Below are positions 1,113-35,451 of a stretch of 64,000 nucleotides of DNA, piece after piece. The DNA comes from Obrimoposthia wandeli (Eukaryota). The stretch spans positions 1-64,000 of the forward strand of contig CDROCS010005932.1 in the NCBI GenBank assembly GCA_977020255.1. Reading direction: 5' to 3'. The stretch's first letter is position 1, and every line of letters starts with the position of its first letter. Position numbers and translations under genes: made by a program. Under the pieces are notes generated by a model that saw nothing but the letters and a program-made list of their open reading frames with translations, searched no databases and was not told the origin of the DNA.

Positions 1113-3476
1113 AGCAGTAGCACAGTGGAGCCAAACGAAGATATCTGAGAGCAATATGAATTCCTGGAAGTTCAAGTAAGATATCATGGGGAATTCCTCT
1201 AGGGCAGTTTAAAAATTGTTCAAACAAACAAAGATGAAACAGTTCATATACCAATTTGACTAAAGCAGTAGATCACAGTTCTGGTGAAGAGAATGACTTA
1301 TGAACCATCAATAGAATATGATTTAATATAAGTTTTAGCGAGATTATGTGGATACCAGACTACAAATAAAAAAGCTTAATCACAGCGATTACACATTCGC
1401 AAGTCAACTGGGACGGAACGAACGAGCCAACCTCAATGGAAGTCAAAACAAGGAATAAATGGCTGATGTATTCATCGAGAACGACATGTTGTTGACGAAT
1501 CGACGAAAACGGAGGTTGGGCTGAAATGGCGATCGCTACGCTAAAACCATTGTGGAAATGAATGAAGACGATGACGGTTCAATGTCATGAGAATCGCCAA
1601 AGAGAAAATAAACACACCGTCCGAAAGAAAGAAAACAACTGCAACCAAATATGTCCAACGATAATGATGATGATGCTAGTAATGTTTATGGGAATGCAAC
1701 AGGCACTGATTGAAGGCACCAAAGATGGGACAAAAGAGCCATCCATTCAGGCTAAAGTTTTATGTTTGGAAATCACACCAACCGCCACAAACCATGAGGT
1801 TTTTCCGAGAGACGTGCACGCATTTCGAACAGAACAATAGAAACAGACAAGAAGCACTACAAACCTGATGTAAAGTTGGGGGATATTAAACAGTCACGAG
1901 AGTAGGACAACGATGGCCCTTGATGGATCTTGTGACGGAGGAACAAAAACGCATGGAACCAAAGTAAATAGTAGAGTTAGTAATGACGTAACTTATCAGA
2001 CGAATTAAAAAACATGACCGCTAATTTTGATAAAAGACACAACGAAATGATGAAGTATCCGGAATGTGGAAATGACAGATCAGTAATGGCAATAGAAGAA
2101 GGATCAGATATTTATTAAAAAGAGAAAAACGCAAAAGGATGTGGAAATGACTGTTAGTACTAAGAACCATCCTGGAATAGTTTTATTCAGAGAATTAATA
2201 GCAATTAGCAGAAACCAAGCTAAAACCCAGGAGGTGGTAAGCTATTAATACACATATTTTAATAATAAATTGATTTTTATTATCATAAAGGACTGATGCA
2301 AATGGAACAGTTATATCGGATGACATCGAGAGAGATTGCCAGCCAAACAAAGAGATCAAGAATAAAGTTAGCATTAGCTATTACGAACTAGACATGGTAG
2401 CACCATTATTACCCTTAGATGAAGGTATTTATAAAACCATGGGAGAAGCATTACATACTTGCTAAGCGAAAGTGGAAGTACAGTTTAAACAACAAACCGA
2501 TGTAATGGAGTGAAATCGGCAGTAACGCATAATTTAAAAGAACTTTTGTTGAACCAATCACGAATGATACTTCCAAAAGACACTCCAACCAAATCAGCTG
2601 TCAATATAATGGGCACCTGAATATCAGATGACGAATGATCTATGGATAACCCTACCTGAATCGAAAGTCAAATTGAAACTCCAGATGATAAAATGACGAA
2701 TCTAAAGGAAAACAAATTCAGCAGAAATATGAAAATGCAGGTTTGTACTACGAAAAAGACTTAAAAGCGGCCTGGAAACGAAATAATGTTTCCAGTAAAG
2801 CGGCCAGAGTACCATGAGATGGTACATCGCATTGACACCAGAGCTGATATGCGAATTTCGATATGTTATTGTCGCCAAGTCATTTGTGGAAGCAGTACAT
2901 CAAACACTTAGAAAGATGGGGAAATTCTTTGTTTTGTGCACAGTTATTTCAGGTATCATAGGTATTTATGAATATAAATTAAATTGTGCAGTGTAATTGA
3001 GCCTGTGTTGTCTACGTATAGCTATAAGCAGGATAACCTGAATCACCTGCAAACTTATAATTGATGTTTCCCATTTTAGCGAAATATCTAATGCAATCAT
3101 CATCACGAGAACGAGCGCTGGTGAGCCCTCAAAGCGAGCAACATCAAACGAGAACCATGATAATGAGAACCAAGAAACTATCATACTACAACGACGATGA
3201 TAACGATAGCCCAGAGAATATTCAAAGAGAATCAGAAAACCAAGCAAAGATTCCTGCTTACCGGTATTGCTAAATAAGTGCTAAACCTATATCCAATGAA
3301 GGAACTAAAGGAAGAGAAGGAAAAAGTTCAAGAGAGGCATTTTAATGATAAGATGGCCTAAAGTGAATCAAGGTGAGATTCCAAGCAGAGAAAAAGACAA
3401 AAGATAATTCCAGCTTGAAGTCTAGGATATCCAATGAGAATCCAAACGCTCCATCACAAGTAGCAGTAACACATCG

Positions 3477-3680: not shown

Positions 3681-4386
3681 TGTCAGAATATTCACAGATT
3701 GTAGTCCAGTCGAATGATGGATGTATATTTGATGTTTGAAGCTGAATAATTATATTACCAAACCAACAAGAGTTTTAAAGAACGACAGTTCAGTGAGAGA
3801 TAAAATGTTGAGAGGACCTAGTAGTCGAAAAGGAAAATAATTATGTTCCGTATATGTAAAATCCGTACCAAGACAGGAAACAGGAAGCGCCAGTAAAGTC
3901 GATACTTCACTACAAAGAGAAACTACGGACCACAAGCTATGACGAGGGAGGAAAATAACATATGTGAATCTGTCGAAAAGATCCCTGAGAATCGGTAGTA
4001 AATAAACGAAGATCACTTGAACCGTACTATTCAAAAGAAATGTCACGTAAATGGCGAGAACAGGTTTACAAATGTTAAACACGACAAATAGTTATGGTTC
4101 TGAGGAAGTAGTACGATGCGTATGGTGCAGAGTAAGTTTAGAAAGTGGGAAAACAATGAAAACCCAATGAAACGTCATAAAGAGATGCACCAAATTGTCC
4201 ATTTCTCTGAAACTGAAAACTTCAAACGTACCAGAAATTCAAATGGGGAAAGCACCATCTGATTTCGACAACAGTGACGAGATTCCAGAAGGAGAATCAG
4301 CTCTAAAAGTAGGCAAAGTGATAACAAATAGCCGAATTGAAGATATATTCGAAGTAATGCGAGAAGTAAACGAATGTGACGAACAA

Positions 4387-5099: not shown

Positions 5100-5420
5100 T
5101 ACAGCGACCAGCAGCTATCATCAGAGTAAATAATTTAAGAGTAAAAGCCTTAATTGATACAGAAAGGTGCTGTAGCTTCGATAGTAAGTGAAGATTGTTT
5201 GACAGAGGAACAGAAACGAACAATGACAGAACCAGATGAATTATTGGTATCAGTCAATGGAGACCCTGTAAAAGTGACGGGAATATTACCATGTACATTT
5301 ATAATTGGACGTAATACGATCACTATACCAGTTAGAATCATGAAAGTATGTCCTAAACCTACAATTTTAGGAATGGATATACTATCACAACTCAAAGGAA
5401 TAAGTATTGATTTACAAGAT
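5100..5420 (+). pseudogene. pol: Pol aspartic protease
   Basis: IRVNNLRVKALIDT + GAVASIVSE with a 4-nt insertion in the DTG codons, and later ILGMDIL. Copy B retains ALIDTG at 34804-34812. Confidence 0.85.
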
Positions 5421-5656
5421 CCAAGATTGAAGGATAGCACATCAAACAGACAAATAAACCAAATTGATGTAATTATAGAAAATCCTATAAAAATCGGTAA
5501 AAGATCACAATTTCTCATTCAAGGTCACACATTATCAGAAGATAAAGGACCAGTTGTGTTCGAACCATCACGAAATTTCATAGATAAATACGGAATTATC
5601 AGTTGTGAGTACAGTATGGGCGTCTGATTGAAAACCACAAAATACCAGTTAGACTG

Positions 5657-7165
5657 ATGAATACAACCAACAATGACATCCTGTTATACAGAGGAATGAG
5701 GTTGGGAAAGATAGCACAGATGAAGAATCCCACTGTGTGTGCTATGAAACTCGATAAAGACACGAATGATTACGAAGAAATAGTAATCCAATCAGAAAGA
5801 CTGACAACCAGAGAAAAGAAACAATTACTCGATTTAATACATAGATTTCCAAAGGTAATTGCCAAAAATCCGTATGACATAGGAGAAACACCTGTCATAA
5901 AACACACAATACCGCTGACAGAAGACAAAGTAGTCAGAAGAAGACCATATCGAGTACCATTACAGTTACAAGACGAAGTCAAAAGCCAGATCGAAGATAT
6001 GTTCAAAACAGGAGTAATTAGACCGAGTTTTTCACCATTCTCAGCACCTGTGGTGTTGGTAAAAAAGAAGGATGGAAAAATGAGATTCTGTATAGATTTC
6101 AGAGAACTGAACAAGATCACAAGAAAAGATGTTTATCCATTACCTAGAATCGAAGAGATGCTCGATAAATTGGGTAATTCAGATTATTTTACATTGATTT
6201 GCAGAGTGGATACTGGCAAATCGAGATAGAGGAAGAGGATAAACACAAACAGCCTTTTCCTGCGGAGATGGATTGTACGAATGCGAAAAAATGCCATTCG
6301 ACTGACAGGAGCCCCAGCAACATTTCAGCGTTGCATGAATTTTGTACTGCATCGTGTGAAACACGATGGTTTATATCGATGACATAATAATATTTTCGAA
6401 GACGTTCGAAGAACATTTAAAAAATCTTGAAGTTGTATTTAAAAGACTGGAAAACGCTAAATTAAAGTTAAACCTACAAAATGCGAATGGGCTAAAGAGC
6501 GAGTAACATTTTTAGGACATATAGTATCGAAAGAAGGTATTCGACCTGATCCAGCAAAGATCGAGAAAGTAAAAGCGCATTTAGCGCCAAAGACTGTTAA
6601 AGAAATACAGAGTTTTTTAGGTCTTGCGAACTATTATAGACGATTTGTTGAACATTTTTCAGATATAGCAACACCATTGAGAAAGTTGACGAGGAAAGAT
6701 GAGAAGTTCATATGAGGAAATGAAGCACAACAAGCGTTCGAACCTCTAAAAGAAAGACTGATAAAAGCACCAATATTAGCGTTTCCAGATATAAACCGAC
6801 AATTCATACTAATGACAGATGGGCAAGTAACTATGCTGTAGGAGCAGTATTGGGGACAAGAGTATGGCGAAGGAAGAGAACACGTCATCGTGTATGCGAG
6901 TAGAGGATTAAACAGAGCCGAAAGAGGATACTATGTTATTGAAAAGGAATGTCTAGCCATAGTATACTCATGTAGACAGTACAGACACTACTTGCTAGGA
7001 AAAAAAGTATTCCTGTATACAGATCACAAACCACTACAGTTCTTGTATAAACATAGAGACGAGATGAGTAGATTAAACAGATGGTTTCTGAAATTGGCCG
7101 AATTTGATCTAGAAATCCGTTATAAAACCGGAAAGTCGAATGACAACGCAGATTGTTTGTCGTGA
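5657..7165 (+). pseudogene. pol: Reverse transcriptase and RNase H (frameshifted, with stops)
   Basis: SPFSAPVVLVKKKDGKMRFCIDFRELN, YPLPRI, SGYWQI, YIDD, TFLGHIVS, YASRGL, EKECLAIV and TDHKPL: typical Ty3/Gypsy RT-RH. Confidence 0.95.
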
Positions 7166-7399
7166 TTGACAAATGTAGACGAGAAAGGAAACATAATTCT
7201 AGAAGAAGAACAAGATGAAACCTACGACCAAAAAGGAGAAGCAAATCTACTATCGATTTTATAAAGACGGGTAAAATAGACAAAGAAATCATCAAGGAAC
7301 AGAAAGAAGATGAAGAACTGAGTCTAATCACAGAACTGTTAGTGAAAGGAGATCTAAACGATGAAATGACGAAAAAATACTCGATAAAAAGAAGGAATC

Positions 7400-8600
7400 T
7401 TGTATATTGTCAACAATATAGGAAAGATAGTAGTAGTAATTCCGAAGTCATTGAAAACAGCAGTGATGATCCAGTACCACGATGGAAGACTGGGAGGACA
7501 TATGTCAGGGACGAAAGACAATAGCCAGAATCAAAGAGAAGTACCATTGGGATGGTGGAAGATGACATAAAACAATGGTGTAAACAATGTAAAGTATGTT
7601 TAACCAGAAAAGACACCGCCGGAACTCGTACTAAAGTTCCACTGAAACCGATGCCAGTTCCTTTGGCACCAATGGAATTCACAGCGATGGATATATTGGG
7701 ACCATTGAGAGAATCGAGTAAAGGAAACAAGTACGTCATAGTATTTACGGACTACATGACGAGATGGGTAGAAACATATCCCATGCAAAACCCCAAGGCT
7801 GAAACAATAGCGCAGATCTTAGTGGAAGAGATAAGATTTTGATACGGAGTGCCTAGAAAGTTATTAATGGATCAAGGCAAGAACTTCACTGAAGAAGTAA
7901 TAAAAGCAGTATCGAAGATATTTGGAATCATGAAGTTACAAACGTCACCATATCACCCACAAACCTATGGTCTAGTATAGAGGATTAATAAAACTTTATG
8001 TATGATGGTACAATCTTATTGCTCCGATAAGCAAGAAGATTGGGATAAATATTTACCTTCATGTTTATATGCTTACAGGAATTCAGTTCGAGAGGCGACG
8101 GTCACACACCATTCTATCTGATGTATCTCAGACAGAACAATATGTCAATAGATCTGGAGTGGACCGAACCAACATCTCAGTATCTAGAAACTGAACAATA
8201 CATTGTCGTTAGGAAAGAAAGATTACAAGATGCTTGGACTAAAGCAGGATTGAAACTGAAATTCAATCAAGAAGGTTACAAGGAACAATATGACAAAAAG
8301 GCAAAACCACATGAATTTAGAGTCGGAGATTAAGTGATGATATTTTACCCAGTCATCGAACCAGGTCTATCGTTTAAACTTCATAGACCATACAAAGGGC
8401 CATACAAGGTGATACAGACAACCTCAACGAACTTGAAAGTAATCAACGAGGAGAACCGGAACAAGGAACCAATGATTGTACATGCAAATCGATGTAAACT
8501 GGTACTGAATAAAGATAACGCGTCACGATATGAGTTAAGATCACAGAAACTGAAGCCGAATACCAATACCATTAAACTTACACGAATGGTAAGTGATTGA
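7400..8600 (+). pseudogene. pol: Integrase with GPY/F C-terminus (decayed)
   Basis: HDGRLGGH...CKQCKVC zinc motif, AMDILGP, LLMDQGKNF, SPYHPQTYG; catalytic Glu codon mutated to TAG; RPYKGPYKV and VHANRCK. Confidence 0.95.
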
Positions 8601-8615
8601 AACTACATAAATACG

Positions 8616-9734
8616 ATGACAAGTGGTAGCGAGGAAAAAGCAGCGAGAATTGGCATGCTCAGAACGAAGCACCAAGAGGAAAAAGAAGTAATCCGACACA
8701 TCGCACCACAAGAGATATTGGAAGAAGACGAAGAGATCATAGTCGTTTTCGAAAGAACACAACCAACAGACGTGGCGAAAGAAGTCATTGTGAAAGATGC
8801 ACTAACAAATGAATTTCTATGCGAACTTAGAGTGTCATACTACGATGGAAATACACTAGTCGCAGAACTGCATCAAAACTCCAATGTGTTTACAACTGAG
8901 AAAGTTATAATCGAAATCACATTAACACCAAACATAGTTGCATGGCAGAACTATGACAGTACTGAATCAGGACTAGCCAGTCAGGAAGAAAAAGAACCGC
9001 CCGGTGGTCACATACTTCATGGTACACCAAAAAGACTCAAACAAGAATACCACGATGTAATAATGGTGTTACGTAATTCACATGGGAGAAGAGACATAAT
9101 GAGAGTTCATTTAATCGACGTTGACACTGAAAAGATAATCTGTCAGATGGACACCAAATACTTTGACGGAAAGACCATTGTATGTAGTATACCGGAATCT
9201 CACCAATTAAACACAGATCAAACGGAAGTATCTGTAAGATTGAGCGTAATAGAAGGATTTCATTCGCCAACCCAACCGGAAGTAACAAACAATAAAATCA
9301 TTAAAGCAACGGCAGAGTTACGCATTGACAGCGGATACCGGAAGTGGGAAGCTAAAAATAAACCACAAAGAATCAATATGATCCGAGAACAAGTGACAAC
9401 CTCAATCCAACCAAAATATCATGCTGAAATAGTATCATCCGCGCCAAGTGTGATTACATCGATAAACGACGAAATTATAATTTTACTAAAAAATCGATGG
9501 CCGTCATCAACCGAGATACGAGTCAATTTAATTAATTATGCGAAAACACCGATATCTAAGCTGAATGTCACCTATTTTGATGCATTGTCCATCATGGGTA
9601 AATTGGAAACAATTGTCATGTGCTATGGAGCACAATTCCAAGTTGAGATACTTAAGGATAGTGTAATACCGTATCTGATTCACAGATACGCAGGACCAGT
9701 CAATCCAATTATTCTAACCCCTTCATTAAATTAA
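8616..9734 (+). CDS. Polyprotein segment with three ~80-aa repeats, IPT/TIG-like fold inferred
   Basis: Three alignable units (~8691-8925, ~9009-9250, ~9423-9660). In copy B the segment is in-frame with integrase (ORF 38896-40332). Confidence 0.55.
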   Translation: MTSGSEEKAARIGMLRTKHQEEKEVIRHIAPQEILEEDEEIIVVFERTQPTDVAKEVIVKDALTNEFLCELRVSYYDGNTLVAELHQNSNVFTTEKVIIEITLTPNIVAWQNYDSTESGLASQEEKEPPGGHILHGTPKRLKQEYHDVIMVLRNSHGRRDIMRVHLIDVDTEKIICQMDTKYFDGKTIVCSIPESHQLNTDQTEVSVRLSVIEGFHSPTQPEVTNNKIIKATAELRIDSGYRKWEAKNKPQRINMIREQVTTSIQPKYHAEIVSSAPSVITSINDEIIILLKNRWPSSTEIRVNLINYAKTPISKLNVTYFDALSIMGKLETIVMCYGAQFQVEILKDSVIPYLIHRYAGPVNPIILTPSLN

Positions 9735-10123
9735 TTCAGACAGACATACCAGAATACCCTTCGAGCGAGTCTAGTCAAGACAGCGAACCTGAAAGTAGCG
9801 ATCCAGAGTCAACAGAATCCGAAGATAACATAATAGAGCGATTCGGAAGAACCATGGAGGTTGAATTCGCTAAAGAGAGTAGAAAAAGACGAAACATAGA
9901 ATTCGTGAAACAAAATATACAAGAAAGACGAATTAAATCCGCAGAAGAGACCGAGTCGGAAGAGGAACCAACAAAAAAACAGACATCAGAGACAAAGATG
10001 AATATCTCTCCAGCGATACGAATGCTGAGAGGAAAGAAACTGGCGAAATTATCCATCATCAACGAACAACTAGAGAAGAGATTAGAAAGACTAAAACTTG
10101 AAGAGTCAGAATTAATGCCACCA

Positions 10124-10530
10124 ATGAGTGAGATCATTCCAGGTAAGTTATACCTCGGAAATGTGGAAGATGCAACAGACGAAAAGAAACTGTTGGAACA
10201 AGGGATAACATACGTGATCAATGTTACAATGAATCACAAATCGCAATATCAGACAATCAGAGCTATGACATTAAGAGTAAAAGACTCAATGGAGGCTAAT
10301 CTTCTCGAATGGTTCGTAGAAACAAACGAGATACTTCACAGAGAACTCCAAAACCAAGGAAAAGTGTGGTACATTGTCAGAAAGGAATCTCCCGATCAGC
10401 AACCCTAGTATTAGCGTATCTAATAAAGACTAGACGAATGCAGGTACTAGAAGCGCTGAAATACCTAAAGGAAAGACGAAGTATCGCGAACCCAAATCTT
10501 AACTTTTTGGGACAATTGTCAAATTACCAA
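10124..10530 (+). pseudogene. Dual-specificity protein phosphatase domain (1-nt deletion before the active site)
   Basis: SEIIPGKLYLGN...GITYVINVT...VHCQKGISRSATLVLAYLI...ALKYLKERRSIANPNLNFLGQL. HCx2GxSRS loop at 10372-10398. Copy B has KVLVHCLKGISRS in one frame (41061-41096). Confidence 0.9.
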
Positions 10531-10641
10531 CTCATGTTGCAAGAACAGAGACGGATGGACGACATCCCTGAGGATCCAAAGGAAAAGAATTTCCTCCAAG
10601 CACTATCGTTTACCGGTTTATTCTTAGCCGGAGTCGACAAA

Positions 10642-11049
10642 ATTACTCAGATAATGCCGAAAGTATTTCTATGTCATCCAGGAGATATAGATACTGCTGG
10701 ATTAAAGTTCCACAGTATCAACCCAGTAATTAACATTGTTGAAGTCGGAAATGAGATAATCAGCCTGCGTCAAAATACTGAAGATGACACAACTCGATAC
10801 ATACATGCTTCCAATCGGGAGATAAACGATGCACAACAACATCTGATGAAACTGACTCAAACCATCCAAGCCGAAGTCACAGAAGGAAACGGCGTTCTGA
10901 TATATCAGAAAAAAGGTACAATGTTAGCGCCTACCATAGGTGTATCCTTGTTGGTAGAGTACCATGGTCATACACCAGAAGAAGCGATGGTTTATATCAA
11001 ACAGAATAGACCAGATACGGAATTCAACCATTACTTGTTCGAGAAATAG
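10642..11049 (+). CDS. Second DUSP-fold domain lacking the catalytic Cys/Arg (pseudophosphatase)
   Basis: ITQIMPKVFL...GNGVLIYQKKGTMLAPTIGVSLLVEYHGHTPEEAMVYIKQNRP aligns to DUSP, with HCxxGxSRS replaced by YQKKGTMLA. Same motif in copy B. Confidence 0.65.
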   Translation: MTQIMPKVFLCHPGDIDTAGLKFHSINPVINIVEVGNEIISLRQNTEDDTTRYIHASNREINDAQQHLMKLTQTIQAEVTEGNGVLIYQKKGTMLAPTIGVSLLVEYHGHTPEEAMVYIKQNRPDTEFNHYLFEK

Positions 11050-11105
11050 AGAAATACTCCGAAAAGAGGAAGCAACAACGAGAAACAAATGAAGCTACAA
11101 CAACA

Positions 11106-13856
11106 GTGCCCAGCTATCAATACCAAAGATTGCTAGCACTAGGCTTGTTAAGTTGTCTAATGCCGATAACGGGAGCACAAGAGATAGGCTCCAACAACGG
11201 AAATAGTTCATGGTTCAAAGAAATCAACAACTACATCATGCAGTACAATACACCGACACTGATGATGCTATTAGTGTTGATAGGACTAATCGATGTTTGG
11301 CTTATCCGAAAATGTTTCCAATCTATGAGAACCGATAGAAAATGTTTCCAGTTTGTGAAAATGAAGAGACCAAATGAACCAACGAACCAAGTACTTGTGT
11401 ATCTAGACGAAAGGATCGAAGAAAACATAGTGAATGAAGCGATATTTTATCCACAAAACAGAATACTGAATCAATTCCGAATAGATTACGAAGCTGACCG
11501 ACAGCGCACACTTGACCGAATATCAACAACATTCGCCGGATGCAGGCGAAGAAAACGAATCGTAAAGGAAATACAAAAAGATGTGGATACAAAAGGTACG
11601 ACGTACATAATCGACGGCGATGTCATCAAAACACGTGAGTATGGAAGTAAGAGAGTGATAATTGAAACGATTGAAGGACATAAAACATGCTTGTCCGCCA
11701 AAATTGGATTCGGGAAATTGATGATACAAGGTAAACAGGTACAGTTGATTATCGGGAAAACTGGAATTGAAGAAATGTCAAAGCAACGACAGACAAACCA
11801 GACAAAATGACCTAACCAGAAACAGATGTTGCTCAAACGAATAATAATCAAAACCCTTTGCAAAAGGACAATCACGGCCCTGTGCACTGTTACACAAGGA
11901 TCGATCTACGGAGTAGTAATTGGATTGGTACTACAAGCCATTCCAACCAGTAAAGCTGAATTGATGACGCTACCTGGATATAATTTACATCTGAGAAATC
12001 TAGACAACACCCTAGAAATAATCAAGACGTCTTATAGTAAAGCCGTGATGATCATGTGTGTAAAAGGATGTCCAGGACGAATATGTGTAATCCCAGCAAC
12101 CGAAATGATAACACTAAATAATCATTATGGAATGAGTGTTGTCACATGTGAAGGATACACATTTGGACAAACTAAAATAGTACTTCTCAGTGACATGTCC
12201 AACCAAAGTACACATAAATTTAAAATATTAACCATCAAGAGTAAAGGGATACCAGCAATACGTTATGGTATTCTAGAATTGGTTAATCCAATACTAGCAT
12301 TGACTATCGGAGTCATAATAATAATATTGCTCATTTTGTTTTGTTGTACAAAGATAGAGTCGAGATCGAAAAAGAAACGTCATGATCTCGCAAGACAAGC
12401 AGGTCAAATGAATTTACAAAAATTCAACACAATGATACCAAGACCAGCATTCCTAAATGAACCAGCACCAAAGTATCAGCCAACGATATACGAACATATC
12501 GAGGAAAGACAATACTACATGAGTAACTTGAGTTATCCTAGAGAAGTTCTTGAGATTAGAAAGCAGACGATCATAGGAATCATGCTGATCATGCAAATCA
12601 CCACGACCGAGGCTGGTTATGAGATCATGATCAGTAAATGGAGACAAGATACGATACGGGCGTTATCCATAAAAATACCTCTAATAAAAACAAATTACGT
12701 AATAGGCATTCACCTACAAACATCAGCAACCGAAAATGTCGATCAGAAATTGTATGTCATTCGCCAGATCAAAATAAAGATTGACCAACATAAACTTTAT
12801 TACCGACTGATATTATTCTACCATGAAAAGGTATTATACCTACGAATAACAATATCAAAAAGGAAACGGATTATTCAAATTATCCGAACAAAGTCATTAA
12901 TATTACCTAACGACGAGCGCATCTGGAAAGTTGTCGACAGGATTATGATCACAGGTAGACGACGTAAAACCGTATGGAATTCCGTTAGAATATTCTTCAG
13001 ATTGTTAGAAACTGACCAGGTAACAGTGGCGTGTCCCAATCCAGATGGTGGAATCCGATTCGAAATTCAAAACCAAATGTTAGTACCACATTTTGATGCA
13101 GAATGTCTATGTAACCGAATTCCCAGCAATGCTAAAGAGACCACTACCATAATCATGGTAATAACAGATGAAATATTCTACATAACTCTAAGATACCAGA
13201 CACGTCGATTTCGTGGACTCGGTATAAGTATTAAACCCAGGAAAATCATTCCCGGAAAACCAATCAAAGTCATAAAAAAGGAAAAGGTGAAAGGAAGTAA
13301 ACGCCATTCCAAAAAACCAATCATAGTCAAAAAGAAGGCAAAGGTAAACGGAAGTAAACGCCATTTCGAGAAGCCAAAAGTAGTCATAACAAAGGCAGAA
13401 GTGAAAGGAAAAGAGCTCGATCTCAGAAATCAAAGTACAATTATTAAGAGTACAAGAGTGAAGGGAACGATTCCACTAGATCCCAAATATCATTTCCAAT
13501 CTCAATTAATAATACCTGTTAGACCGAAAACAAAATATCCAAATCCGCGAGTTATTAGAAAATCGGACATAATACATGGAAACCGATCAACACCAATGGA
13601 AACGCCATTCAAACCGACAAACAACAAAATGAAGTATGATTACCAATCATCAGACAGCGGAATAACAGCGGTCAATGCTCTAATTGGAATGGCAGTAGTG
13701 TCAACAGCAGTAGTTCTATTGACAGTCGTGTGCGTGAAAGGCAGTCAGGTATGCCCAAGAATACGACGGAAATGCGAAGGACTGCGATGCTGTAACACAC
13801 CCACAATGGAGGAAGTGGAATTGCGACCCTTACCTCCGCCTCCCATCAAGACATGA
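11106..13856 (+). CDS. C-terminal membrane-protein region of the polyprotein (one in-frame TGA at 11808)
   Basis: ORFs 11106-11810 and 11826-13856 share a frame, and the TGA is CGA in copy B. Three signal-peptide-like and three TM-like hydrophobic segments. Confidence 0.7.
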
Positions 13857-13981
13857 TAAGTCAGAGGAGGTTGTAGATAAATTAGTGTGTAAAAATATGT
13901 AGAAATATCTAGAAGCGATTGTACAAATAAGTAGAAATATGTAAAACCCATGTAGAAATTAATTGTCATCATGTATTTAGA

Positions 13982-14281
13982 ATGTCCGAAGAATGCCCAA
14001 TATGTTTGGAAGATTTAACCGAACGAAGAACAAGACCCGATACCTGCAACCACTTACACCACGAGGAATGTTTGTCAAAATGGATCAGAACCTATGGAGA
14101 GACTCCCTATCCGACATACCCTCGTTGCCCTGTATGCAGAAGACAATTCACAAAGTTAATCAAAATAGAACCCAACCAAGAGGATGTAGATGTACAGGTG
14201 ATATTATGTTGGAAGAATTTGAGAGAGTGTTGGTGTTATTACTGTTTATCAGAACGACAAAATTCGACCACTTTTGTGTAA
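13982..14281 (+). CDS. Small RING-H2 protein 1 (99 aa)
   Basis: CPIC...CNHLHHEEC..W...CPVC plus C-terminal CWKNLRECWCYYC. Confidence 0.85.
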   Translation: MSEECPICLEDLTERRTRPDTCNHLHHEECLSKWIRTYGETPYPTYPRCPVCRRQFTKLIKIEPNQEDVDVQVILCWKNLRECWCYYCLSERQNSTTFV

Positions 14282-14341
14282 ACATCGCACAACCACCAGC
14301 CCTCAATCGAGCCCAATTTCAACATCAACCCTCTCACAGTA

Positions 14342-14647
14342 ATGTCTGGAGAATGTTCAATCTGCTACGAGAACATCGTGGACCTCTATACCAAACCCAA
14401 CAACTGTGACCACCAGTTCCATGTCGAATACCTCGAGACGTGGATCCCAATCGCAAACAACAACAATCCCCTCGACTACCCAAACTGCCCGATGTGCAGA
14501 GCAACCTTCTCGGTGCACTATGTCTACAACCGGGACAGCCTCCAAGCAGTGGTACCCATTGTACACTGCTGGAAAAACATATGCGACTGCTGGTGTTCGT
14601 TCTGCGTAGAGGAGCGACGCACAGGCCAGCCCAACAGCCAGCAGTAA
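14342..14647 (+). CDS. Small RING-H2 protein 2 (101 aa)
   Basis: CSIC...CDHQFHVEY(C in copy B)..W...CPMC plus HCWKNICDCWCSFC. Confidence 0.85.
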   Translation: MSGECSICYENIVDLYTKPNNCDHQFHVEYLETWIPIANNNNPLDYPNCPMCRATFSVHYVYNRDSLQAVVPIVHCWKNICDCWCSFCVEERRTGQPNSQQ

Positions 14648-14997
14648 CCGAAGGTAACTTTTGACTTAAAACGTGACATCATGAACTACCCTGTGTATCG
14701 CACACCGCGATAAAATAACTACCATAATTGTAATCATAATTGTATAATCTTGCGAAACTGTAAAATGACCATTACCATTTTTATGTATGTTGTTTATTTG
14801 AAATTGTAATTATTAGACTGAAACTCCAAAAGACAATTTTTTATGCTTAGTATGAATGTGAAAAACATGCCTAAAATCAAGACAAAATTCGGTAGGATTA
14901 AAATACTAAGGCTTATAATATTGAAATTAAAATATTAAATTCATAAATTAATATTAAACCCAATTGAACCCCAAATTAAAGAGTAATTATTGCGCAG

Positions 14998-15528
14998 ATG
15001 CTTTGCTCAATTAGCCTCGAGAAAATCTGGGCAGAGTCGGCATCCCCTGCCGGGTGCCGGCACAAATTCCACGAATCCTGCCTCTATTTGTGGGCCAAGG
15101 CTCGACCCTCCGGCCACATCACATGCCCGATGTGCCGGGCACCCTTTTCCGAGTGGACGCTCCAGTGCCGTGGACGACCCAAGGGCACCCACTCATCCAC
15201 CAGTTGCATTGGTGGCGAGCACTGTCAGTGCTCCGTGTGCCTCGCGCGCCGTCGCAACGCACAATTGGGCATCCGCGAACGATGGCGGTCTAGCCGCGAT
15301 AACCGCTCATGGCAACAGGCCAGACGCTTATGGATGGAGAATTATGAGCTGTACGGGCAGGATTTCGATTTATTTATCGAGAGCTCACACCTGACCCCGG
15401 ACCAGCAGGTGGACCTACTCCTCGGGGACATTCCGTCCTTCCCAGACCTACCCCTGGAGCAGGTCATGCTCTATTTGGACAGTCAGAACCAGCCAACAGT
15501 AACAATTGACCTCACCAGCAACAACTGA
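14998..15528 (+). CDS. RING-H2 protein 3 (176 aa)
   Basis: CSIS (second Cys changed)...CRHKFHESC..W...CPMC, then CIGGEHCQCSVC and an acidic tail. Confidence 0.75.
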   Translation: MLCSISLEKIWAESASPAGCRHKFHESCLYLWAKARPSGHITCPMCRAPFSEWTLQCRGRPKGTHSSTSCIGGEHCQCSVCLARRRNAQLGIRERWRSSRDNRSWQQARRLWMENYELYGQDFDLFIESSHLTPDQQVDLLLGDIPSFPDLPLEQVMLYLDSQNQPTVTIDLTSNN

Positions 15529-16408
15529 TAAAACATTACAATTCATCCTTTCCGCTCCTTTCCTTCTCTAAAACACTTGTGTATAATATATGTAGTGAAT
15601 ATTTGTGACCTTGTCCGATTTATTCACTATCTTGGCAGTAGTACCGAATTTTGTTGAATATTAGGCATGTTGATGAGTTTTGAATGATTGAAATTAGTGG
15701 GGATGATTTTAAAAACAGAAGCTCAGAAGCTAGTAAATTAAAATCGATACGTTCCGGGGACGTAACTTTTTTAGAACCCCCGAGATATGTTAGGTTTAGG
15801 AATTGATAAAAATAGAATAATTAATCGAATTTATAGTGAAATAAGAATCCTTGAAAGCAAGGTTATAAATTAAATAAAATTGAATATTAGAATTAAATTA
15901 TTGAGATTGGGAGGTAAATTGAATATTAAGGACCACGAAGGTCGTGTGTAGTGCGCTGTATGTATGGGAGGTTAGATTATTATTAAGGGCCCCAAAAAAC
16001 AAGAATCAATTAAGAAAACGAAAATCTAATTAAGAAGATTATTGCGAAAAGTTTATTAAGAAAAAGGACGAAGAAGAAAATCAAATTAGTCGTACATTAG
16101 AAACCCATTAGCAGTCTAGCAGCTACGACAACAGAAACCCATTAGCAGTCTGGGAGCCAGCAGTAGCACTTAGCTAAATTGATTTCTTCTGTAGAAAGTG
16201 AGCAGCAGAAAAGCAAACATCCGCAACCAATTCCATTAAGCCGTCAGTGGGAGCCAGCAGCTAATAGTCTGTCGAGTCGACTGATCCATTAGGACAAGCA
16301 CAGGACGTCGAGAAAGAGACCAGCCGTAGTTTTCCAATTCCAGCGATTTCCGTGCGAGGTAAACACATTAAAGTAAAGTGTTTTCAATTATTCCATTAGG
16401 AAACCAAA

Positions 16409-16415
16409 TATAAAA
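16409..16415 (+). promoter_or_regulatory. TATA box in the LTR
   Basis: TATAAAA about 620 bp into the LTR. Confidence 0.45.
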
Positions 16416-17142
16416 GCAGACGCACTCCGATCGCAGAGGCAGTAGCTAACGAAAAAATACTCGTCGAGAAAATCCGAGCAGGAATAAAATTCGAGAATCA
16501 GAGTTACAGTAGTTAGAGTCCAAGAAAGAATTTAGAGGAAAGGTCGCAAATTGTTGTATCGGACAGCAGACGAACACAGCAGCAGCACAAGATCTCGCAG
16601 ATCCTTCTAGCAATCACCAAGCTCGAACGCGGAACTAGGACTCAAAGGACTCTCGAACACCGACGGATAGACCAAAGGCGATAGATCTCCAAACGAGACC
16701 GGACGGACGAGATCTTCGGAGTAAGCCGAAGTCTGCCGATATTGGAGGAAGGTCAATAACGCGATTTCGTGGAAATTATTTTACATCCTTTGCAGTTCGA
16801 CACGGAAAGAAGAACAGCGAGCAAGAAGCCGAAACGGAGCTATTCGGAACCAGGAAGTTGTCTCCGTGGAAACAGAGGTATCGGACTAATCCAGCACCAC
16901 GCCAAACTCCACAAAAGGTCCGTAACAGAACAAGACAATTCTAGCAACCGAATAAACCGCCTCGTACAAAACAATCCTAGCGACTGTATCAATCCCACAA
17001 AAGGACCGATCTCAGAGCGAGCATTACGGAAGACAATCGGAAGGTCTGCCAGAGCAAGCCTACGCATAGAATTATTCGGAGAGAGGTAAGAAGCGAACCG
17101 AATAATTGTGAAGTGAATTAAAGTAAAAGAAAAAACGTTACT

Positions 17143-18470
17143 GTGAATTTTGAATCTGAACTAGTAAAGTAATTGCCGTGAATTTTGAAGTATTGAAATA
17201 ATTTCTGTGAATTTTGAATCTGAACTAGTAAAGTAATTGCCGTGAATTTTGAAGTATTGAAATAATTTCTGTGAATTTTGAATCTGAACTAGTAAAGTAA
17301 TTGACGTGAATTTTGAAGTATTGAAATAATTTCTGTGAATTTTGAATCTGAACTAGTAAAGTAATTGCCGTGAATTTTGAAGTATTGAAATAATTTCTGT
17401 GAATTTTGAATCTGAACTAGTAAAGTAATTGCCGTGAATTTTGAAGTATTGAAATAATTTCTGTGAATTTTGAATCTGAACTAGTAAAGTAATTGACGTG
17501 AATTTTGAAGTATTGAAATAATTTCTGTGAATTTTGAATCTGAACTAGTAAAGTAATTGCCGTGAATTTTGAAGTATTGAAATAATTTCTGTGAATTTTG
17601 AATCTGAACTAGTAAAGTAATTGACGTGAATTTTGAAGTATTGAAATAATTTCTGTGAATTTTGAATCTGAACTAGTAAAGTAATTGCCGTGAATTTTGA
17701 AGTATTGAAATAATTTCTGTGAATTTTGAATCTGAACTAGTAAAATAATTGCCGTGAATTTTGAAGTATTGAAATAATTTCTGTGAATTTTGAATCTGAA
17801 CTAGTAAAGTAATTGACGTGAATTTTGAAGTATTGAAATAATTTCTGTGAATTTTGAATCTGAACTAGTAAAGTAATTGCCGTGAATTTTGAAGTATTGA
17901 AATAATTTCTGTGAATTTTGAATCTGAACTAGTAAAATAATTGCCGTGAATTTTGAAGTATTGAAATAATTTCTGTGAATTTTGAATCTGAACTAGTAAA
18001 GTAATTGCCGTGAATTTTGAAGTATTGAAATAATTTCTGTGAATTTTGAATCTGAACTAGTAAAGTAATTGCCGTGAATTTTGAAGTATTGAAATAATTT
18101 CTGTGAATTTTGAATCTGAACTAGTAAAGTAATTGCCGTGAATTTTGAAGTATTGAAATAATTTCTGTGAATTTTGAATCTGAACTAGTAAAGTAATTGC
18201 CGTGAATTTTGAAGTATTGAAATAATTTCTGTGAATTTTGAATCTGAACTAGTAAAGTAATTGCCGTGAATTTTGAAGTATTGAAATAATTTCTGTGAAT
18301 TTTGAATCTGAACTAGTAAAGTAATTGCCGTGAATTTTGAAGTATTGAAATAATTTCTGTGAATTTTGAATCTGAACTAGTAAAGTAATTGCCGTGAATT
18401 TTGAAGTATTGAAATAATTTCTGTGAATTTTAAATCTGAACTAGTAAAGTAATTTCCGTGAATTTTAAAG
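17143..18470 (+). repeat. 64-bp tandem array, about 20.7 near-identical copies
   Basis: Unit gtgaattttgaatctgaactagtaaagtaattgcc + gtgaattttgaagtattgaaataatttct; unit starts at 17143, 17207 ... 18423. Confidence 0.98.
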
Positions 18471-19129
18471 TCCGCAATTGAAATCGGATTGTTCTGCATT
18501 TTACCTAAATTAGAGCAACAACTCTACTAAACTTTATCCCGTGTTAGAGCAACAGCTCGGTAAACTACTGGTATTTTAGATCAACGCTCTGTAAACTTGT
18601 CGCAATTTTAGAGTAAAGACTCTAGCGCCAACCAACCCTAAACCTAAAATCGATACGTGGTTCATCCCTACTTGTGTAGAGACTTACGGAAGTATTAGGA
18701 ATTTTACTGTAACTTTTTAGAAATACGTACGTAAACGTATTGCTTTGTGTTAGTCTAGTGTGTTAATAAATAAACGATTTCCTACATTAGAAAGCATTGT
18801 TCTAAACCCTTCAGATTAAGAGACATCGGAAAACAAACACCTTCAGATAAGAATTGAGACAGGCAACTATAACATTAAGTAGGCCACGACCATCCTTAAG
18901 TCCTGCTTCTATAAGAACTCACGTTGGGGCCCTCCACACTAAAGAGGATCTATAAGTTTCATATAGAAACCCCAACACTATCTTAGACGATGATGGCTTT
19001 TTGAGAAGTAATACAAGAATTATCCATGCTGAATTTTTCAGTTATGATGTACAATTCTCGATTATTGTGTGCGAGAAGAGCAGTTTAGCAAGGTTGATTA
19101 TAAAAGAAATCAACAAGAAGTTGAAGCAC

Positions 19130-20130
19130 TAGGGTGATATGCAACATGTTCTAAACTAGGTACAATTTAAATTTTGGATTCCGAAGGTGAGACGAATAAT
19201 GAGTTATGTAGAAAATAAGTACAAAGCGTTTAAAAAATGTAAAGCAGTAGGAAGGACACAAATAATGACACCGTTGTCACGGGTTTTATTTAGAGAACCT
19301 TTCAAACCCTTCGCAAGATTTGGGTTGATTTTTCAGGACCAATAATGACAGTACAGGGCCGAGGAAAAGAGAAGAGAAAAGAGATACATTTGTATTTTAA
19401 CGTGTTTACAAGTTAGAGCGATACCTGTAAAGTTAGCCCACGGTCTTGACATGACGCATTTCTTAGAGCCTTTAAGAGACTTTTAGGAAGAAGAAAACGA
19501 ATTTATTGGCGCCACAAATGATCTAAACCAATTTGTAATTCACAGCTATTAAATAAAGAAGGAGTTGGCAGAGAACGATATCACATGGGTATTCAATCCT
19601 CCATGGTCGCCTCACTTCGGTGGTGTTTTTGAGTCAATGATAAAATCAGTAAAAAGAGCAATGAAGAAAGTTCTACAGGAAGAAGATGCGACCGACGAGA
19701 AGTTGGTGGCGGTATTAATAGAGGTCGACCAGTTGGTGAATTCACGAGCTTTTAGCAGAAAATCAATGGACAAGGAGTGTGAAGCTTTGACACCAAATCA
19801 TTTTTTAATTGTAGCCGCTGATTTTTGTTTCAATTTTTCAAATACATCGGGAAGGTTGCGGGTGAGATGAAAATTAATTCAAAAGTTAACAAATAACTTT
19901 TGAGTGCGGTGGATGGAGGAGATCGTTAAAATGCGTCAAAAATGGTTTGAGGAGAAAAGTCCGTGGGAAAGAGGAGACGTGGTGTTAGTTTCGGATAAAA
20001 AGAATGAACGTGGAGCATGGCAAGGAACTGATGGAGTGGGACGTGTTGCTTCAGTATTAATCGACAGAAAAGAATTGAAGAGGATGCAGTGAAATTTATG
20101 TTGTATTGGTTGAGTTAGTTGACTGAAGGT
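19130..20130 (+). mobile_element. BEL/Pao integrase remnant
   Basis: KRYICILTCLQVRA, WVFNPPWSPHFGGVFESMIKSVKR, LTPNHFL; many stops and indels. Confidence 0.85.
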
Positions 20131-23031: not shown

Positions 23032-25609
23032 CAGTTCGTCGCTGTTTGGGGTACATTTTGCACCCCAGGCACATTTCAAGTGTTATAAACTCGAATTAAT
23101 CAAACTTTGAGAATTTCTGCTTTATGACTTTTTAAGTTTGACCATTCTACACATCATATCGGAAAGTCAAACATTTTATATACTATGAGGAAGCTCAGAC
23201 ATATTTTTATATGTACTGTCGTTTGGGGTGCATTTTGCACCCCAAACAAATATAATGCATTCTTGTTTTTCAATGCAGAAATCTGACTCTTTAAATTTAT
23301 TTTAGGTACTGAATATTACTATAGTACTCAACCAATCAATAAGCAATTATTGATTCAACAAGAATGTAGATAGGTATATATTGGCAACTCTCATGAGCAT
23401 TCGAATTAGTTGCATTATTATTTTCAGATTGCATTCAATTATATTTCATTCTCTGCATTTGCAATATGTTGCGTCAACTACCACGGAGACTAGCTCGTAA
23501 TGATGCCAACAGACTGTTGTTTGGCCAAGATATTGATGATGACGCCGACTCTATGCATGATTTATCAGAGGATGATGTTGCAAACAATATCGATCAGAAT
23601 CTTCCAAATAATGGTGATGGCGATGCAGCCCCTCCCGTTGCTGATGGAGATGAACAAGCCGATGACTTTCTAGATGAAGAGGTTTTGCGCAATTTGTCAA
23701 GTGGTGAAAGTGACGAAGATGATGATCCACAACAGCAAAGAGGATTGATTTCTCCCAATGGACAAATATGGACATTGAATCAACCGGTAGCAGTTGGAAG
23801 GCAACCAGAGGCTATTATATTCCGTGGTGTCCAAGGATTTCGTCGTGGTTTGCACCCCGAATCACGATTAGAATCTTTTGAAGTATTCTTTGACAGTTCA
23901 GTTGATTGTGCGATAATGTTTACAAACTTGTATGGTCGCAGATTGGCCTGCGAAAAAGGCGTTGAATGGAAGCAAGTGACTGCAAATGAAATGCGAGCAT
24001 TCATTGGACTTCATTTTCTTGCAGGCGCCCTAAAGACACATCATCGAGTACTGGAGGAAATGTGGTCGGATCGTGATGGTCATGCTCCTTTTAGGGCCAC
24101 CATGAGCTGCCAGCGCTTCAAACAACTGAAGCAAGCATTACGCTTTGACGATCCCATAAGGAGGGATAGGGAGGATCCCCTGGCTCCCATTCGTAGAATT
24201 GTGCAATATGTGAATGACAGTCTGGTCTATGCTTATTCGCCAGGCCCATTCATTACTGTTGATGAGCAACTGGTAGAATTCCATGGCAGAGTTCGTTTTA
24301 GACGTTATATACCTACAAAACCAGGCAAATTTGGTATAGAAATCTACTGGTCCGTGGATGCAGACTACAGTTTCCCACTGCGGTGTTTAGTATACATTGG
24401 TGAGAAGACACTTTCGAGACAAGAGAAAGAAGACTCTCCATCAATTCCGGAAGCCGTCGTCTGGAACATTGCTCGTCCCTTGTTGAACGAAGGAAGGAAC
24501 ATCACAGGAGATAATTACTTCTCATCTCTTCACCTATGCCAGAGATTGTTGGAACGGCAGACTACATATGTCGGCACAATGCGACAGAATAAGCGAGAGA
24601 ATCCACCATTAGCAAAGACAACAACTGGACGACACAGGGGTGATAGCATTCACTACTACACTGATGATACCACTCTTTGCTCCTTTTGGGACAAGGGCAA
24701 AAACCTAGTTTTACTAATTTCAACCCAACATAAAGCCCAACAAAATCACCCTGATAGAAAACCAGAAATCGTGATCTTCTATAACAGTACTAAAGCCGGT
24801 GTGGACACCCTTAATAAATTGAATAGGACATTCTCATCGAAGCGCAAGTGTCGCCGTTGGCCTTACTCGATCTTCTTTTCGTTAGCAGATAATGTGTGCT
24901 ATGCTGCCCTGTTGTTATGGAATTCGTCCGAGGTCAACAATGATTCACATTATGCATTCAAAAGAGAGCTGGCATATGAATTGTGTACACCACTGATTCG
25001 ACAAAGATCCACTATCCCCAACCTCCGTAAGACCATCAAAACGGCAATTGAACGTCTTGGTTTACAACCTCATATGGTGCCACTCCCTCGTCAACAAGCA
25101 GTTCGCACTCAGGGAAGGTGCTACATGTGCCCGAGAGGTCCAGACCGCAAACAACGGAAAATGTGCTTCGAGTGTCATCAATTCATTTGTCCAATACATG
25201 GACAAACGCGTAATGTGTTCAATAATTGCATTGTTTAGCTTTATAAACTTATACCTAACTGTAACTGAATAAACTATTAGACTCTCTGTGCCAGAGTACA
25301 CTTCAAGTATATTATGTTCAATTCATCATACTAATAAAGTTTCTGTAACTTTTTCTATTTTCTTAAAATACGTGTCCTATACCAATAAAGTAATGTTTTT
25401 CTATTTCTATAATGAATGGTTCTATAATAATTAGTTTAGCTTTTATGCTTTCTAAGAAACGTTGTGTAGGTAGTAGCTAATAGAGTACTTACTACCAGAA
25501 CAGAACCTATTGCTTCTTTATTTGCAATGAATTCCAATGGAATAGGTTGGGGTGCAAAATGCACCCCAAACGTCGTTTACCTAGTAAAAAAGTGAACAGC
25601 GAAGAACTG
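23032..25609 (+). mobile_element. Full-length piggyBac transposon (2578 bp)
   Basis: TTAA at 23028-23031 and 25610-25613; TIR cagttcgtcgctgtt / aacagcgaagaactg; subterminal palindromes ggggt(a/g)cattttgcacccc at both ends. Confidence 0.95.
23466..25238 (+). CDS. piggyBac transposase, uninterrupted 590 aa
   Basis: ITVDEQLV, KPGKFG, NITGDNYFSS, YNSTKAGVD and a C-terminal Cys-rich domain. Confidence 0.95.
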   Translation: MLRQLPRRLARNDANRLLFGQDIDDDADSMHDLSEDDVANNIDQNLPNNGDGDAAPPVADGDEQADDFLDEEVLRNLSSGESDEDDDPQQQRGLISPNGQIWTLNQPVAVGRQPEAIIFRGVQGFRRGLHPESRLESFEVFFDSSVDCAIMFTNLYGRRLACEKGVEWKQVTANEMRAFIGLHFLAGALKTHHRVLEEMWSDRDGHAPFRATMSCQRFKQLKQALRFDDPIRRDREDPLAPIRRIVQYVNDSLVYAYSPGPFITVDEQLVEFHGRVRFRRYIPTKPGKFGIEIYWSVDADYSFPLRCLVYIGEKTLSRQEKEDSPSIPEAVVWNIARPLLNEGRNITGDNYFSSLHLCQRLLERQTTYVGTMRQNKRENPPLAKTTTGRHRGDSIHYYTDDTTLCSFWDKGKNLVLLISTQHKAQQNHPDRKPEIVIFYNSTKAGVDTLNKLNRTFSSKRKCRRWPYSIFFSLADNVCYAALLLWNSSEVNNDSHYAFKRELAYELCTPLIRQRSTIPNLRKTIKTAIERLGLQPHMVPLPRQQAVRTQGRCYMCPRGPDRKQRKMCFECHQFICPIHGQTRNVFNNCIV

Positions 25610-29365: not shown

Positions 29366-30100
<735 letters not shown>

Positions 30101-31405
30101 TAAGTCTTGCTTTGAATATTTTTTTCTATTTTCGAAATAAAAAATAGATACAGATTAAACATTTATCGCCATCAATTTCCTTCATAAATATTCATAGTGG
30201 ATTGTCCAAAATAATTTTAAGGGATACTAAGTTTAGACTTTTAAGCATTTTTGTTATGGATTTTTTTTATTATAAGTACAAAATTAAGCGAATAATCGAG
30301 AAATCACTCAAACAAAAATAGTTGAACGTGGAAATTACATATGTATATTTGATATTGATTAGAAAGTTTTTTTTAAATGGCCTTCAATATTTCATGAACC
30401 TTGAATAATTAGCTATTCTATTACTCTAATGATTGAAATCTTGATTTTTATTATGCATGAATGTTTGTACATATAAATAGTAAAAGAAATTCTTAGGTTG
30501 TATATTATGTTAAGGGTCAGTTTTCTTAAAAAAATATCTGAAATCTTGTTTTTTATTTGCGCCGTTCTTATTTCGTGAATGCTCTTTAGAGATAGGTGTT
30601 ACTCATATTGTGATATGGAACATGTTCAAACAAGTTTCTCTGTTCTTCTATCAACACGAAGTACCATGTACCGTGCTCAAATGAAAGAGAATGTTGAGAA
30701 CTTATTTCAATACAAGTAATACAGTTAAAAATTTGACACTTGCATATGTGAAAAATGATATTTGATAAATAAAACAATTTCACATGGTAGGCTATAATTA
30801 CGTAACCGGCCAATAATTTTTACTACACAATCTTAGTACCACAAACTACTATCTATATTGATTAATTGATACAAAGTTAGGATTCGCATTTGATTTGGCT
30901 TGAAATTCGCATTCCCACTCCAAGTAACATTGGACAATTTTACAATCTATATCGGAATAAGAATTATATTACATAATATATTCTATTATCCACCCATCTA
31001 TGAATAGTGTAAGTGCCATTTCGATTTATGTCAAATGATAAATCCCCATACTAATTGAACATATTTTCATATATTGAATTACAGAACGCTTGGAAAAACT
31101 TTCCATTCGATGAAAATATTTTTAAAGGAATATTTTGCATCCTGATTATAACAAAAATATATTTATCCTTTTTAATTAAATTATACCTGTAATTAGTAAA
31201 ATTTCTATATCGAAGAGATTATTATGGAGAACTGCCATTTATAATTAGACGTGCTTATGGTGAAAGGTCAATACAGATTATGAAATGCTAATGTCTTGAG
31301 AACCTTTATTTTTAAGTCAAGGTCAGTTAAATTATTTAAAACTTTCTAAACGAAATACTGAGTGAGAATGCAACAAGTTTGTAGCAAACCAGTTTTTGCC
31401 AATTA

Positions 31406-35410: not shown

Positions 35411-35451
35411 TGGTAGCAGAGCGTGGTTGGGTTATGGGCCCCCCAGCCACG
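35411..35451 (+). promoter_or_regulatory. Primer-binding site complementary to tRNA-iMet, with a second complementary box
   Basis: TGGTAGCAGAGCGTGGTT right after the LTR, then GGGTTATGGGCCC...AGCCACG. Confidence 0.8.

Follow-up and report, generated by a model that had tools for sequence, protein, structure and literature searches.

The window, that is the whole 64,000-nt stretch of DNA that was analysed, contains one large Ty3/gypsy element present as two decayed copies, A and B. Copy A begins upstream of about 4100 and reaches at least 15500, and copy B spans about 33300 to 45100; the DNA identity between them is 77 to 83%. Most of the RT and RNase H is absent from copy B, which is split by an insertion bounded by 380-bp terminal repeats. 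The PR-RT-RH-IN order of the pol region, together with a GPY/F module, places the element in the Ty3/gypsy class. The protease is recognised by Pfam RVP (E = 0.0057) in copy B, at the position homologous to that in copy A. The features on which the analysis rests are the following.

4039 to 4195 (+): broken BIR-like remnant upstream of the protease, also found near 33810 in copy B (Pfam BIR, weak)
5154 to 8330 (+): disrupted pol region of copy A, encoding PR, RT, RNase H and integrase (H2C2, rve) in that order (Pfam RVT_1, RT_RNaseH, Integrase_H2C2, rve)
8334 to 8597 (+): GPY/F module (YKGPYKV) at the C-terminal end of the integrase (Pfam Integrase_p58_C with E = 2.7e-4, which does not reach the curated cut-off)
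8598 to 8684 (+): in-frame stop of copy A (8598 to 8600) and linker to R1, in which a motif at 8607 resembles a protease site, a weak candidate picked post hoc
8685 to 8957 (+): R1, predicted IPT/TIG-like beta-sandwich, acidic, the best conserved repeat (AF2 model, VIA structure match, dN/dS 0.09)
9006 to 9329 (+), end approximate: R2, IPT/TIG-like, probably with an insertion before the last strand (AF2, Foldseek, VIA, Atlas, dN/dS 0.17)
9423 to 9692 (+), end approximate: R3, third repeat (sequence homology to R1 and R2)
9734 to 10147 (+): linker between R3 and the phosphatase, acidic and Ser-rich, then basic; in A the frame changes near 9732, in B it runs straight on from the R3 tail
10148 to 10530 (+): dual-specificity phosphatase 1, with an intact HCxxGxSRS motif and an internal frame change in A (Pfam DSPc; phmmer against the PDB, E = 1.7e-15)
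10642 to 11028 (+): second, phosphatase-like domain without the catalytic Cys motif (DSPc, E = 2.8e-6; translation)
11029 to 13856 (+): membrane-protein region with a Pro-rich end and a stop at 13854 common to copy B (hydropathy; frame comparison)
13931 to 15528 (+): three frames for RING fingers downstream of the long frame, of which the first two are conserved in B (zf-RING_2 above the curated cut-off in all three)
38848 to 40332 (+): uninterrupted frame of copy B covering the integrase C-terminal region, R1, R2 and most of R3
40353 to 40991 (+): frame of copy B in which the R3 tail, the acidic linker and phosphatase 1 are continuous (8/16 and 32/47 identities)

No LTR pair was found within the window; copy A seemingly begins upstream of it, and copy B is truncated. 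The region from about 15600 to 18900 is a non-coding tail, possibly the 3' LTR of copy A; it includes a 64-bp unit repeated 20.8 times with 98% match (17141 to 18471), and the interval 15501 to 17200 contains no purine run of at least 12. Between the protease and RT lies an insert (5450 to 5720, +) without a match in the Pfam scan; a dUTPase-like domain occupies the equivalent position in other elements. In copy B, a gag-like remnant recognised by eye (33300 to 33880, +, no Pfam match) almost directly abuts the second half of the BIR remnant, which suggests a large internal deletion in this copy. An imperfect palindrome, possibly a small inserted element, marks the 3' end of the copy B homology (45159 to 45391). 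Other mobile DNA in the window comprises integrase remnants with DUF5641 at 35040 to 38315 and 19000 to 20100, which we take to be of the BEL/Pao family, the former interrupting copy B and having terminal repeats at 35040 to 35411 and 37937 to 38315, and an open 613-aa frame for a piggyBac-type transposase (23397 to 25238, +; DDE_Tnp_1_7, E = 1.4e-62). A C2H2 zinc-finger exon at 29366 to 30103 (+) probably belongs to a host gene. Zinc-finger exons, the piggyBac-type transposase and the BEL/Pao-like remnants together suggest the genome of an animal, probably an invertebrate.

The first-pass annotation had read the frame at 8601 to 9734 as an integrase C-terminus extended by three tandem IPT/TIG-like repeats. 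In copy A, a stop codon at 8598 to 8600 separates the integrase C-terminus from this frame, so that the fusion of integrase and repeats is seen in one of the two copies. That copy is B, where the integrase-R1 junction is open and the alignment gap-free, and where a frame change lies inside R3. From 8598 on, copy A has five breaks (8598, near 9732, near 10360, near 11030 and 11808), and every one of them is bridged by a single open frame of copy B; the breaks of copy B that were compared all fall within open frames of A, and the two copies share a stop codon, at 13854 in A. Natural stop-free frames only were used for this comparison. From these complementary breaks we infer one long frame across 8334 to 13853, with an implied extension of 1,751 codons after the integrase. 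The junction near 9732 is absent from the blastp output and was read from the DNA alignment and one frame of B, in which the R3 tail (8 of 16 residues identical to A) and the acidic linker (32 of 47) follow in the same frame. Codon-position bias at this R3-phosphatase junction is weak (7, 3, 4 and 10, 6, 11), the fusion here being drawn from one copy, and the first Met common to both copies lies 40 codons into the linker.

With two copies only, the ancestral state cannot be fixed, and we therefore regard the full fusion as likely rather than assured: judging from the sequence, a single frame would have led from the integrase through the three TIG-like repeats, an MKP-type phosphatase and a phosphatase-like domain to the membrane segments. 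The protein probably extends beyond the repeats, as the R3 tail of copy B continues into the acidic linker and the phosphatase. The original reading of the repeats as an integrase C-terminus therefore stands in part, with an in-frame link in copy B set against the stop in copy A, and their placement as the protein's C-terminus is probably wrong.

The repeats themselves, whose motifs start at 8691 (R1), 9012 (R2) and 9429 (R3) in the stop-to-stop frame 8601 to 9734 of copy A, align with one another well beyond chance. The local alignment score was 85 for R1 and R2 (z = 13.4) and 52 for R1 and R3 (z = 6.1), neither reached by any of 2000 shuffles, and 49 for R2 and R3 (z = 6.2), reached by one shuffle in 2000. 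Pairwise identity among the repeats is 19 to 23%, with P, I, Y and D residues invariant in all six rows of the alignment. The copy B frame at 38848 to 40332 is 79% identical to the repeat frame of copy A over 339 aa. Both the mutual alignment of the repeats and their conservation in copy B, noticed at first reading, are thus confirmed. Linkers differ in length: 28 residues precede R1 in the frame, about 16 separate R1 from R2, with four to five Pro/Gly in 20, and 31 separate R2 from R3, while the R3 tail is Pro-rich. Charge differs as well, R1 being acidic (pI 4.3, 18 D/E versus 6 K/R) and R2 having a pI of 6.7 to 8.0.

Codon comparison of the two copies gave a dN/dS of 0.16 (95% interval 0.11 to 0.23) over 311 codons of the repeat region. 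Taken separately, the values were 0.09 for R1, 0.17 for R2 and 0.13 for R3 (65 codons in frame in both copies), compared to 0.14 for the integrase core and 0.18 to 0.61 for the downstream frames. Differences in the repeats fell mostly at third codon positions (7, 3 and 19 at positions 1 to 3 in R1). The repeats thus evolved under purifying selection between the copies, and the low dN/dS and third-position excess argue that they were a functional protein during the divergence of A and B.

The fold was approached with AlphaFold2 models of R1 and R2, built on shallow six-row alignments of the same six sequences. Both models are all-beta, with six strands. In that of R1 (pLDDT 73.7) the last strand, G, is not resolved; in that of R2 (9006 to 9257, pLDDT 75.3) strand G lies outside the model and the first strand, A, is split. 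By definition, IPT/TIG domains have seven strands, A to G, with a broken A strand (PMC7128310). For R1, VIA gave the DBB domain of BCAP (6sws) as best match (Z = 8.4, rmsd 2.3, 76 aligned residues), the next entry being at 7.4; among other TIG domains, Met/plexin IPT domains scored 7.0 to 7.2, p50 6.4, CAMTA1 6.3, Rel at most 6.4 and NFAT at most 5.9. A search of 48,161 chains again placed the DBB first (Z = 7.7), followed by a Bacteroides protein (7.4), with Met and plexin IPT domains, the CAMTA1 TIG and p52 in the top 10. With Foldseek, ranks 1 to 4 were taken by NFAT C-terminal domains, and the best TM score (0.63) was that of the BCAP DBB. The ESM Atlas feature search returned no usable hit for R1.

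For R2 the picture was less clean. With Foldseek, 6sws was at rank 2 (E = 0.085) with the best TM listed (0.59), and with VIA a pyocin fibre domain came first (Z = 6.9), DBB domains being at 5.3 to 6.0, tied within 1, and having the highest identity (18%) among the 50 matches listed. The ESM Atlas search reported TIG in 28 of 30 hits (score 0.92), at a recognition of 2017, which is weak and below the reliable level; a viral-structure search with R2 gave nothing at E ≤ 0.001. All Foldseek E-values for R1 and R2 exceed 0.001, and Z values near 7 to 8 are common according to the tool's own warning. The Pfam TIG, DBB and RHD families matched neither the whole frames nor any of the six single repeats at E up to 10, Pfam returning sub-threshold matches to unrelated families only. 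In the absence of a curated HMM match, the repeats were filed as 'TIG-like' and not as family members.

An IPT/TIG-type fold is nevertheless assigned to R1, with moderate strength to R2 from its model, and by sequence homology R3 is presumably a TIG-like repeat too; that the fold is of TIG type we consider very probable. The IPT/TIG identity proposed in the first-pass annotation is in this respect upheld, the structural neighbours of R1 being mostly IPT/TIG and the weak Atlas result for R2 pointing the same way, and the structure predicted for R1, on which this was checked, is an E-set sandwich and not some other fold.

Which TIG subtype lies nearest is less clear, and we put the DBB slightly above even odds. 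Likeness to the DBB of BCAP/BANK1/Dof (6SWS) comprises the best match for R1, a place near the top for R2, the split first strand of R2 and the hydrophobic strand B; differences are an identity of only 12 to 18%, the lack of a Pfam DBB match, the presence of three tandem copies and the lack of room for a C-terminal helix after R1 or R3. TIR or ankyrin families, which accompany the DBB in TIR-DBB-ankyrin or DBB-ankyrin contexts, were not found among the scanned frames of the element. The TIG domains of Rel/NFAT/EBF/CAMTA share the fold class (Z = 5.7 to 6.4), NFAT being top by Foldseek E-value for R1, but they score about 2 Z units below the DBB, and R1 is acidic. A Rel/NFAT-type N-terminal DNA-binding domain is absent before R1, where the frame holds only the 28-residue linker.

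Strand B has five hydrophobic residues in a row in all six repeat sequences, and strand E has V or M at its central position in all six. On an alternating strand, a run of five hydrophobic residues would leave an exposed hydrophobic patch, and a fully hydrophobic strand B is as expected for TIG domains that pair via the ABED sheet. TIG dimer contacts are indeed described on this sheet, and the BCAP TIG, part of a cytosolic DBB, is described as not binding DNA itself (PMC7128310). According to the same source, the BCAP TIG is a monomer when two of its three helices are present, and the C-terminal helices stabilise the dimer. Such helices have no room after R1, where the linker has 16 residues, or after R3, where the tail is Pro-rich, so that the repeats are not a full DBB and binding by the sheet alone would perhaps be weak.

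Downstream of the repeats, the nearest solved relatives of phosphatase 1 are MAPK phosphatases, with DUSP10/MKP5 first. No hydrophobic segment above threshold occurs between 8601 and 11046, while four occur in 11029 to 13856 (at 11235, 11877, 12291 and 13680), a region without a convincing Pfam or PDB match. The third membrane segment is followed by a cytosolic-looking stretch (12291 to 12520, +) whose TIYEHI-type tyrosine motif is also kept in copy B and could be an SH2 docking site. In its Lys-rich part, copy A has 2.7 units of a 57-bp coding tandem repeat (13256 to 13410), and copy B has one. Upstream, the BIR remnant consists of three weak complementary pieces (E = 0.084, 0.11 and 0.01), all below the cut-off. 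Upstream of the BIR and the protease lies a frame with many breaks (1560 to 3150, +), which opens with a signal-peptide-like stretch and closes with a hydrophobic one, so that by eye its ends look env-like; its reading as an env between gag and pol, as in Burro, was not supported, no credible database match being obtained (two of its three frames were compared with the PDB).

By described domain content, the nearest known system appears to be the Burro/GYPSM1 group, giant gypsy elements of planarians whose polyproteins are 4,873 to 5,140 aa long (PMC6431247). Their description lists AIR1, Smc, MATH, Ubi, BCL2, ankyrin, BIR, env and dUTPase domains, and the host-like ones (BIR, RING-type) are read there as interfering with apoptosis and ubiquitination (PMC6431247). 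The likeness is that of a gypsy pol inside a very long multi-domain polyprotein with host-like regulatory domains. The element differs in that its cargo, as far as shown here, lies downstream of the integrase, and in that neither a TIG/DBB nor a phosphatase is among the domains described for Burro/GYPSM1, the two being compared by description only. Chromoviruses likewise have an extra domain C-terminal to the GPY/F module, as described in PMC13524379. In the present element, however, the extra domain occurs in three copies, after which comes a long extension of enzymes and membrane segments, and no Pfam chromodomain match was found after the GPY/F module in copy A or B. Accessory-domain capture as such is already described (PMC5408684, PMC6338049).

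The reading that we prefer, to which we give an even chance, is that the repeats serve a Burro-like polyprotein as a cytosolic module, a decoy or adaptor, which would damp host immune or stress signalling through putative partners. Membrane segments and a nuclear integrase being incompatible, we infer that the polyprotein must be cut somewhere, and the element's protease may free the TIG-phosphatase block from the integrase. As no membrane segment precedes 11046, this block would be cytosolic. The hydrophobic ABED faces of the repeats would then dock on TIG dimerisation surfaces of the host, the likeliest targets being DBB adaptors of the BCAP/BANK/Dof kind, with Rel/NFAT less likely; the DBB being structurally nearer to R1 (Z = 8.4) than Rel (at most 6.4) or NFAT (at most 5.9), a DBB-type decoy fits better than a Rel-type one. 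Docking would either poison host dimers or bring the phosphatase to receptor-proximal complexes, and NF-kB/JNK-type immune, stress and death signalling would be damped in cells where the element replicates, the BIR and RING products acting alongside. The MKP-like phosphatase adjoining the repeats, the RING frames and the weak BIR support this reading. In a more specific form, which is tentative, the retroelement would have captured and triplicated a DBB-type TIG and set it beside an MKP-type phosphatase, a pseudophosphatase and membrane proteins with a Tyr motif, all in a single polyprotein with about 1,750 extra codons after the integrase; the repeats would then mimic DBB adaptors and block receptor-proximal immune signalling.

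As to the cleavage itself, a hydrophobic-Asn-x-hydrophobic pattern was seen by eye at the domain boundaries of protease and integrase, and in both copies similar motifs occur in the linkers between integrase and R1 and between R2 and R3. The motif was chosen post hoc and occurs 12 times in 2604 aa, and its I/V/A-N-x-hydrophobic form is common (0.28 per 60 aa). A looser pattern showed no enrichment (P = 0.49 in copy A, P = 0.053 in copy B); the enrichment of a narrow linker motif (4 per copy against 0.1 to 0.2 expected) was discarded as circular, the pattern having been drawn from those same hits. The candidate motif before R1 is thus a weak lead only.

The place of the repeats, about 60 codons after the GPY/F motif and in frame in copy B, invites the thought that, where chromoviruses have a chromodomain, they remain part of the integrase and anchor the pre-integration complex on a chromatin protein of the host, such as a Rel/NFAT/EBF/CAMTA factor that is bound to DNA and held via its TIG face. 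Chromodomains do sit C-terminal to the integrase (PMC13524379), transcription-factor TIGs are among the structural neighbours of R1, and R1 is constrained as much as the integrase. However, the frame seems to continue into phosphatases and membrane segments that a nuclear integrase could not keep, so that cleavage would be needed, and the weak candidate cleavage site lies before R1. The cytosolic, non-DNA-binding DBB is nearer than Rel/NFAT, the acidity of R1 makes direct DNA contact unlikely, and the two flanks in the window have no obvious target preference. We find such targeting rather unlikely, and the chromodomain analogy drawn at first reading is weakened, since the repeats appear to start a long accessory extension instead of ending the integrase, and the pI of R1 is 4.3. 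To a self-assembly scaffold, in which the repeats would pair among themselves (R1 to R2, or across molecules), not with a TIG of the host, and would oligomerise the phosphatase block or organise the particle, we give a similarly small chance. TIG domains are described as dimerisation modules (PMC7128310), the hydrophobic strand B is kept in all repeats, and tandem duplication with charge divergence (R1 at pI 4.3, R2 at 6.7 to 8.0) suits complementary pairing; by itself, however, a scaffold does not explain an adaptor-like fold among host-modulating domains (phosphatase, BIR, RING). Prediction of an R1+R2 complex scored 0.00 in both runs, made without alignments and with an uncertain partner fold, and is evidence neither way. 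A scaffold and a decoy are compatible and not mutually exclusive, and decoy, targeting and scaffold are not fully exclusive of one another.

There are two further explanations, and we consider both very improbable. The repeats could be a different beta-sandwich, whose TIG matches reflect a common fold: HMM support is absent, Foldseek E-values all exceed 0.001, a pyocin fibre tops the R2 list and the six-row alignments are shallow. Against this, two separately modelled repeats (from the same six-sequence alignment) both have the DBB among their first matches, the R1 lists consist largely of TIG families, and TIG is also what an independent language-model search returns for R2. Alternatively, a separate accessory gene, or an extracellular plexin-type IPT array, could merely adjoin the integrase. 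The stop of copy A before the repeats, a Met at codon 7 of the frame that is common to copy B, and the Z values of 7.0 to 7.2 between R1 and plexin/Met IPT domains, which form tandem arrays, would agree with this, but the junction of copy B is open and gap-free, no signal or membrane segment occurs before 11046, and the domains next to the repeats in frame are cytosolic enzymes. One further stop is to be expected from decay in copy A, which has many others as well as frame changes.

Relatives of the repeats were sought in several collections. Word-indexed searches found none with the frame 8601 to 9731 (2248 candidates), with a repeat profile (5806 candidates) or with the integrase tail of copy B (67 candidates). 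A phmmer search of 1.84 billion cluster representatives gave no match, tblastn against phages nothing, and PDB sequence searches chance matches only (E = 0.083 and 1.1). In the literature outside Repbase and the subscription journals, nothing was found that links a DBB domain to retrotransposons or IPT/TIG to a gypsy integrase. Among the literature matches listed, no element with TIG/phosphatase cargo appeared, nor, by title or abstract, any viral Rel decoy of TIG type. The TIG/DBB-like triplet is real and under selection, and probably undescribed; it stands at the start of a long extension of the gypsy polyprotein with putative signalling modulators.

Immune-modulating genes are well known from large DNA viruses: phosphatases, IAPs and RING ligases in poxviruses and baculoviruses, and ankyrin proteins in polydnaviruses. 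The element has the same functional kit (a signalling-domain mimic together with a phosphatase, BIR and RING), but it is carried by an LTR-type retroelement, and its phosphatase is nearest to cellular MKPs. Accessory domains after a gypsy integrase are usually read as targeting devices; the present element suggests that the post-integrase position may instead begin a block of host-signalling modulators. If a DBB was indeed captured, an LTR element would possess an immune-evasion kit of the sort known from large DNA viruses. If the repeats do act as decoys, invertebrate retroelements would counter innate signalling directly, and the repeats would offer a natural probe of invertebrate DBB adaptors.
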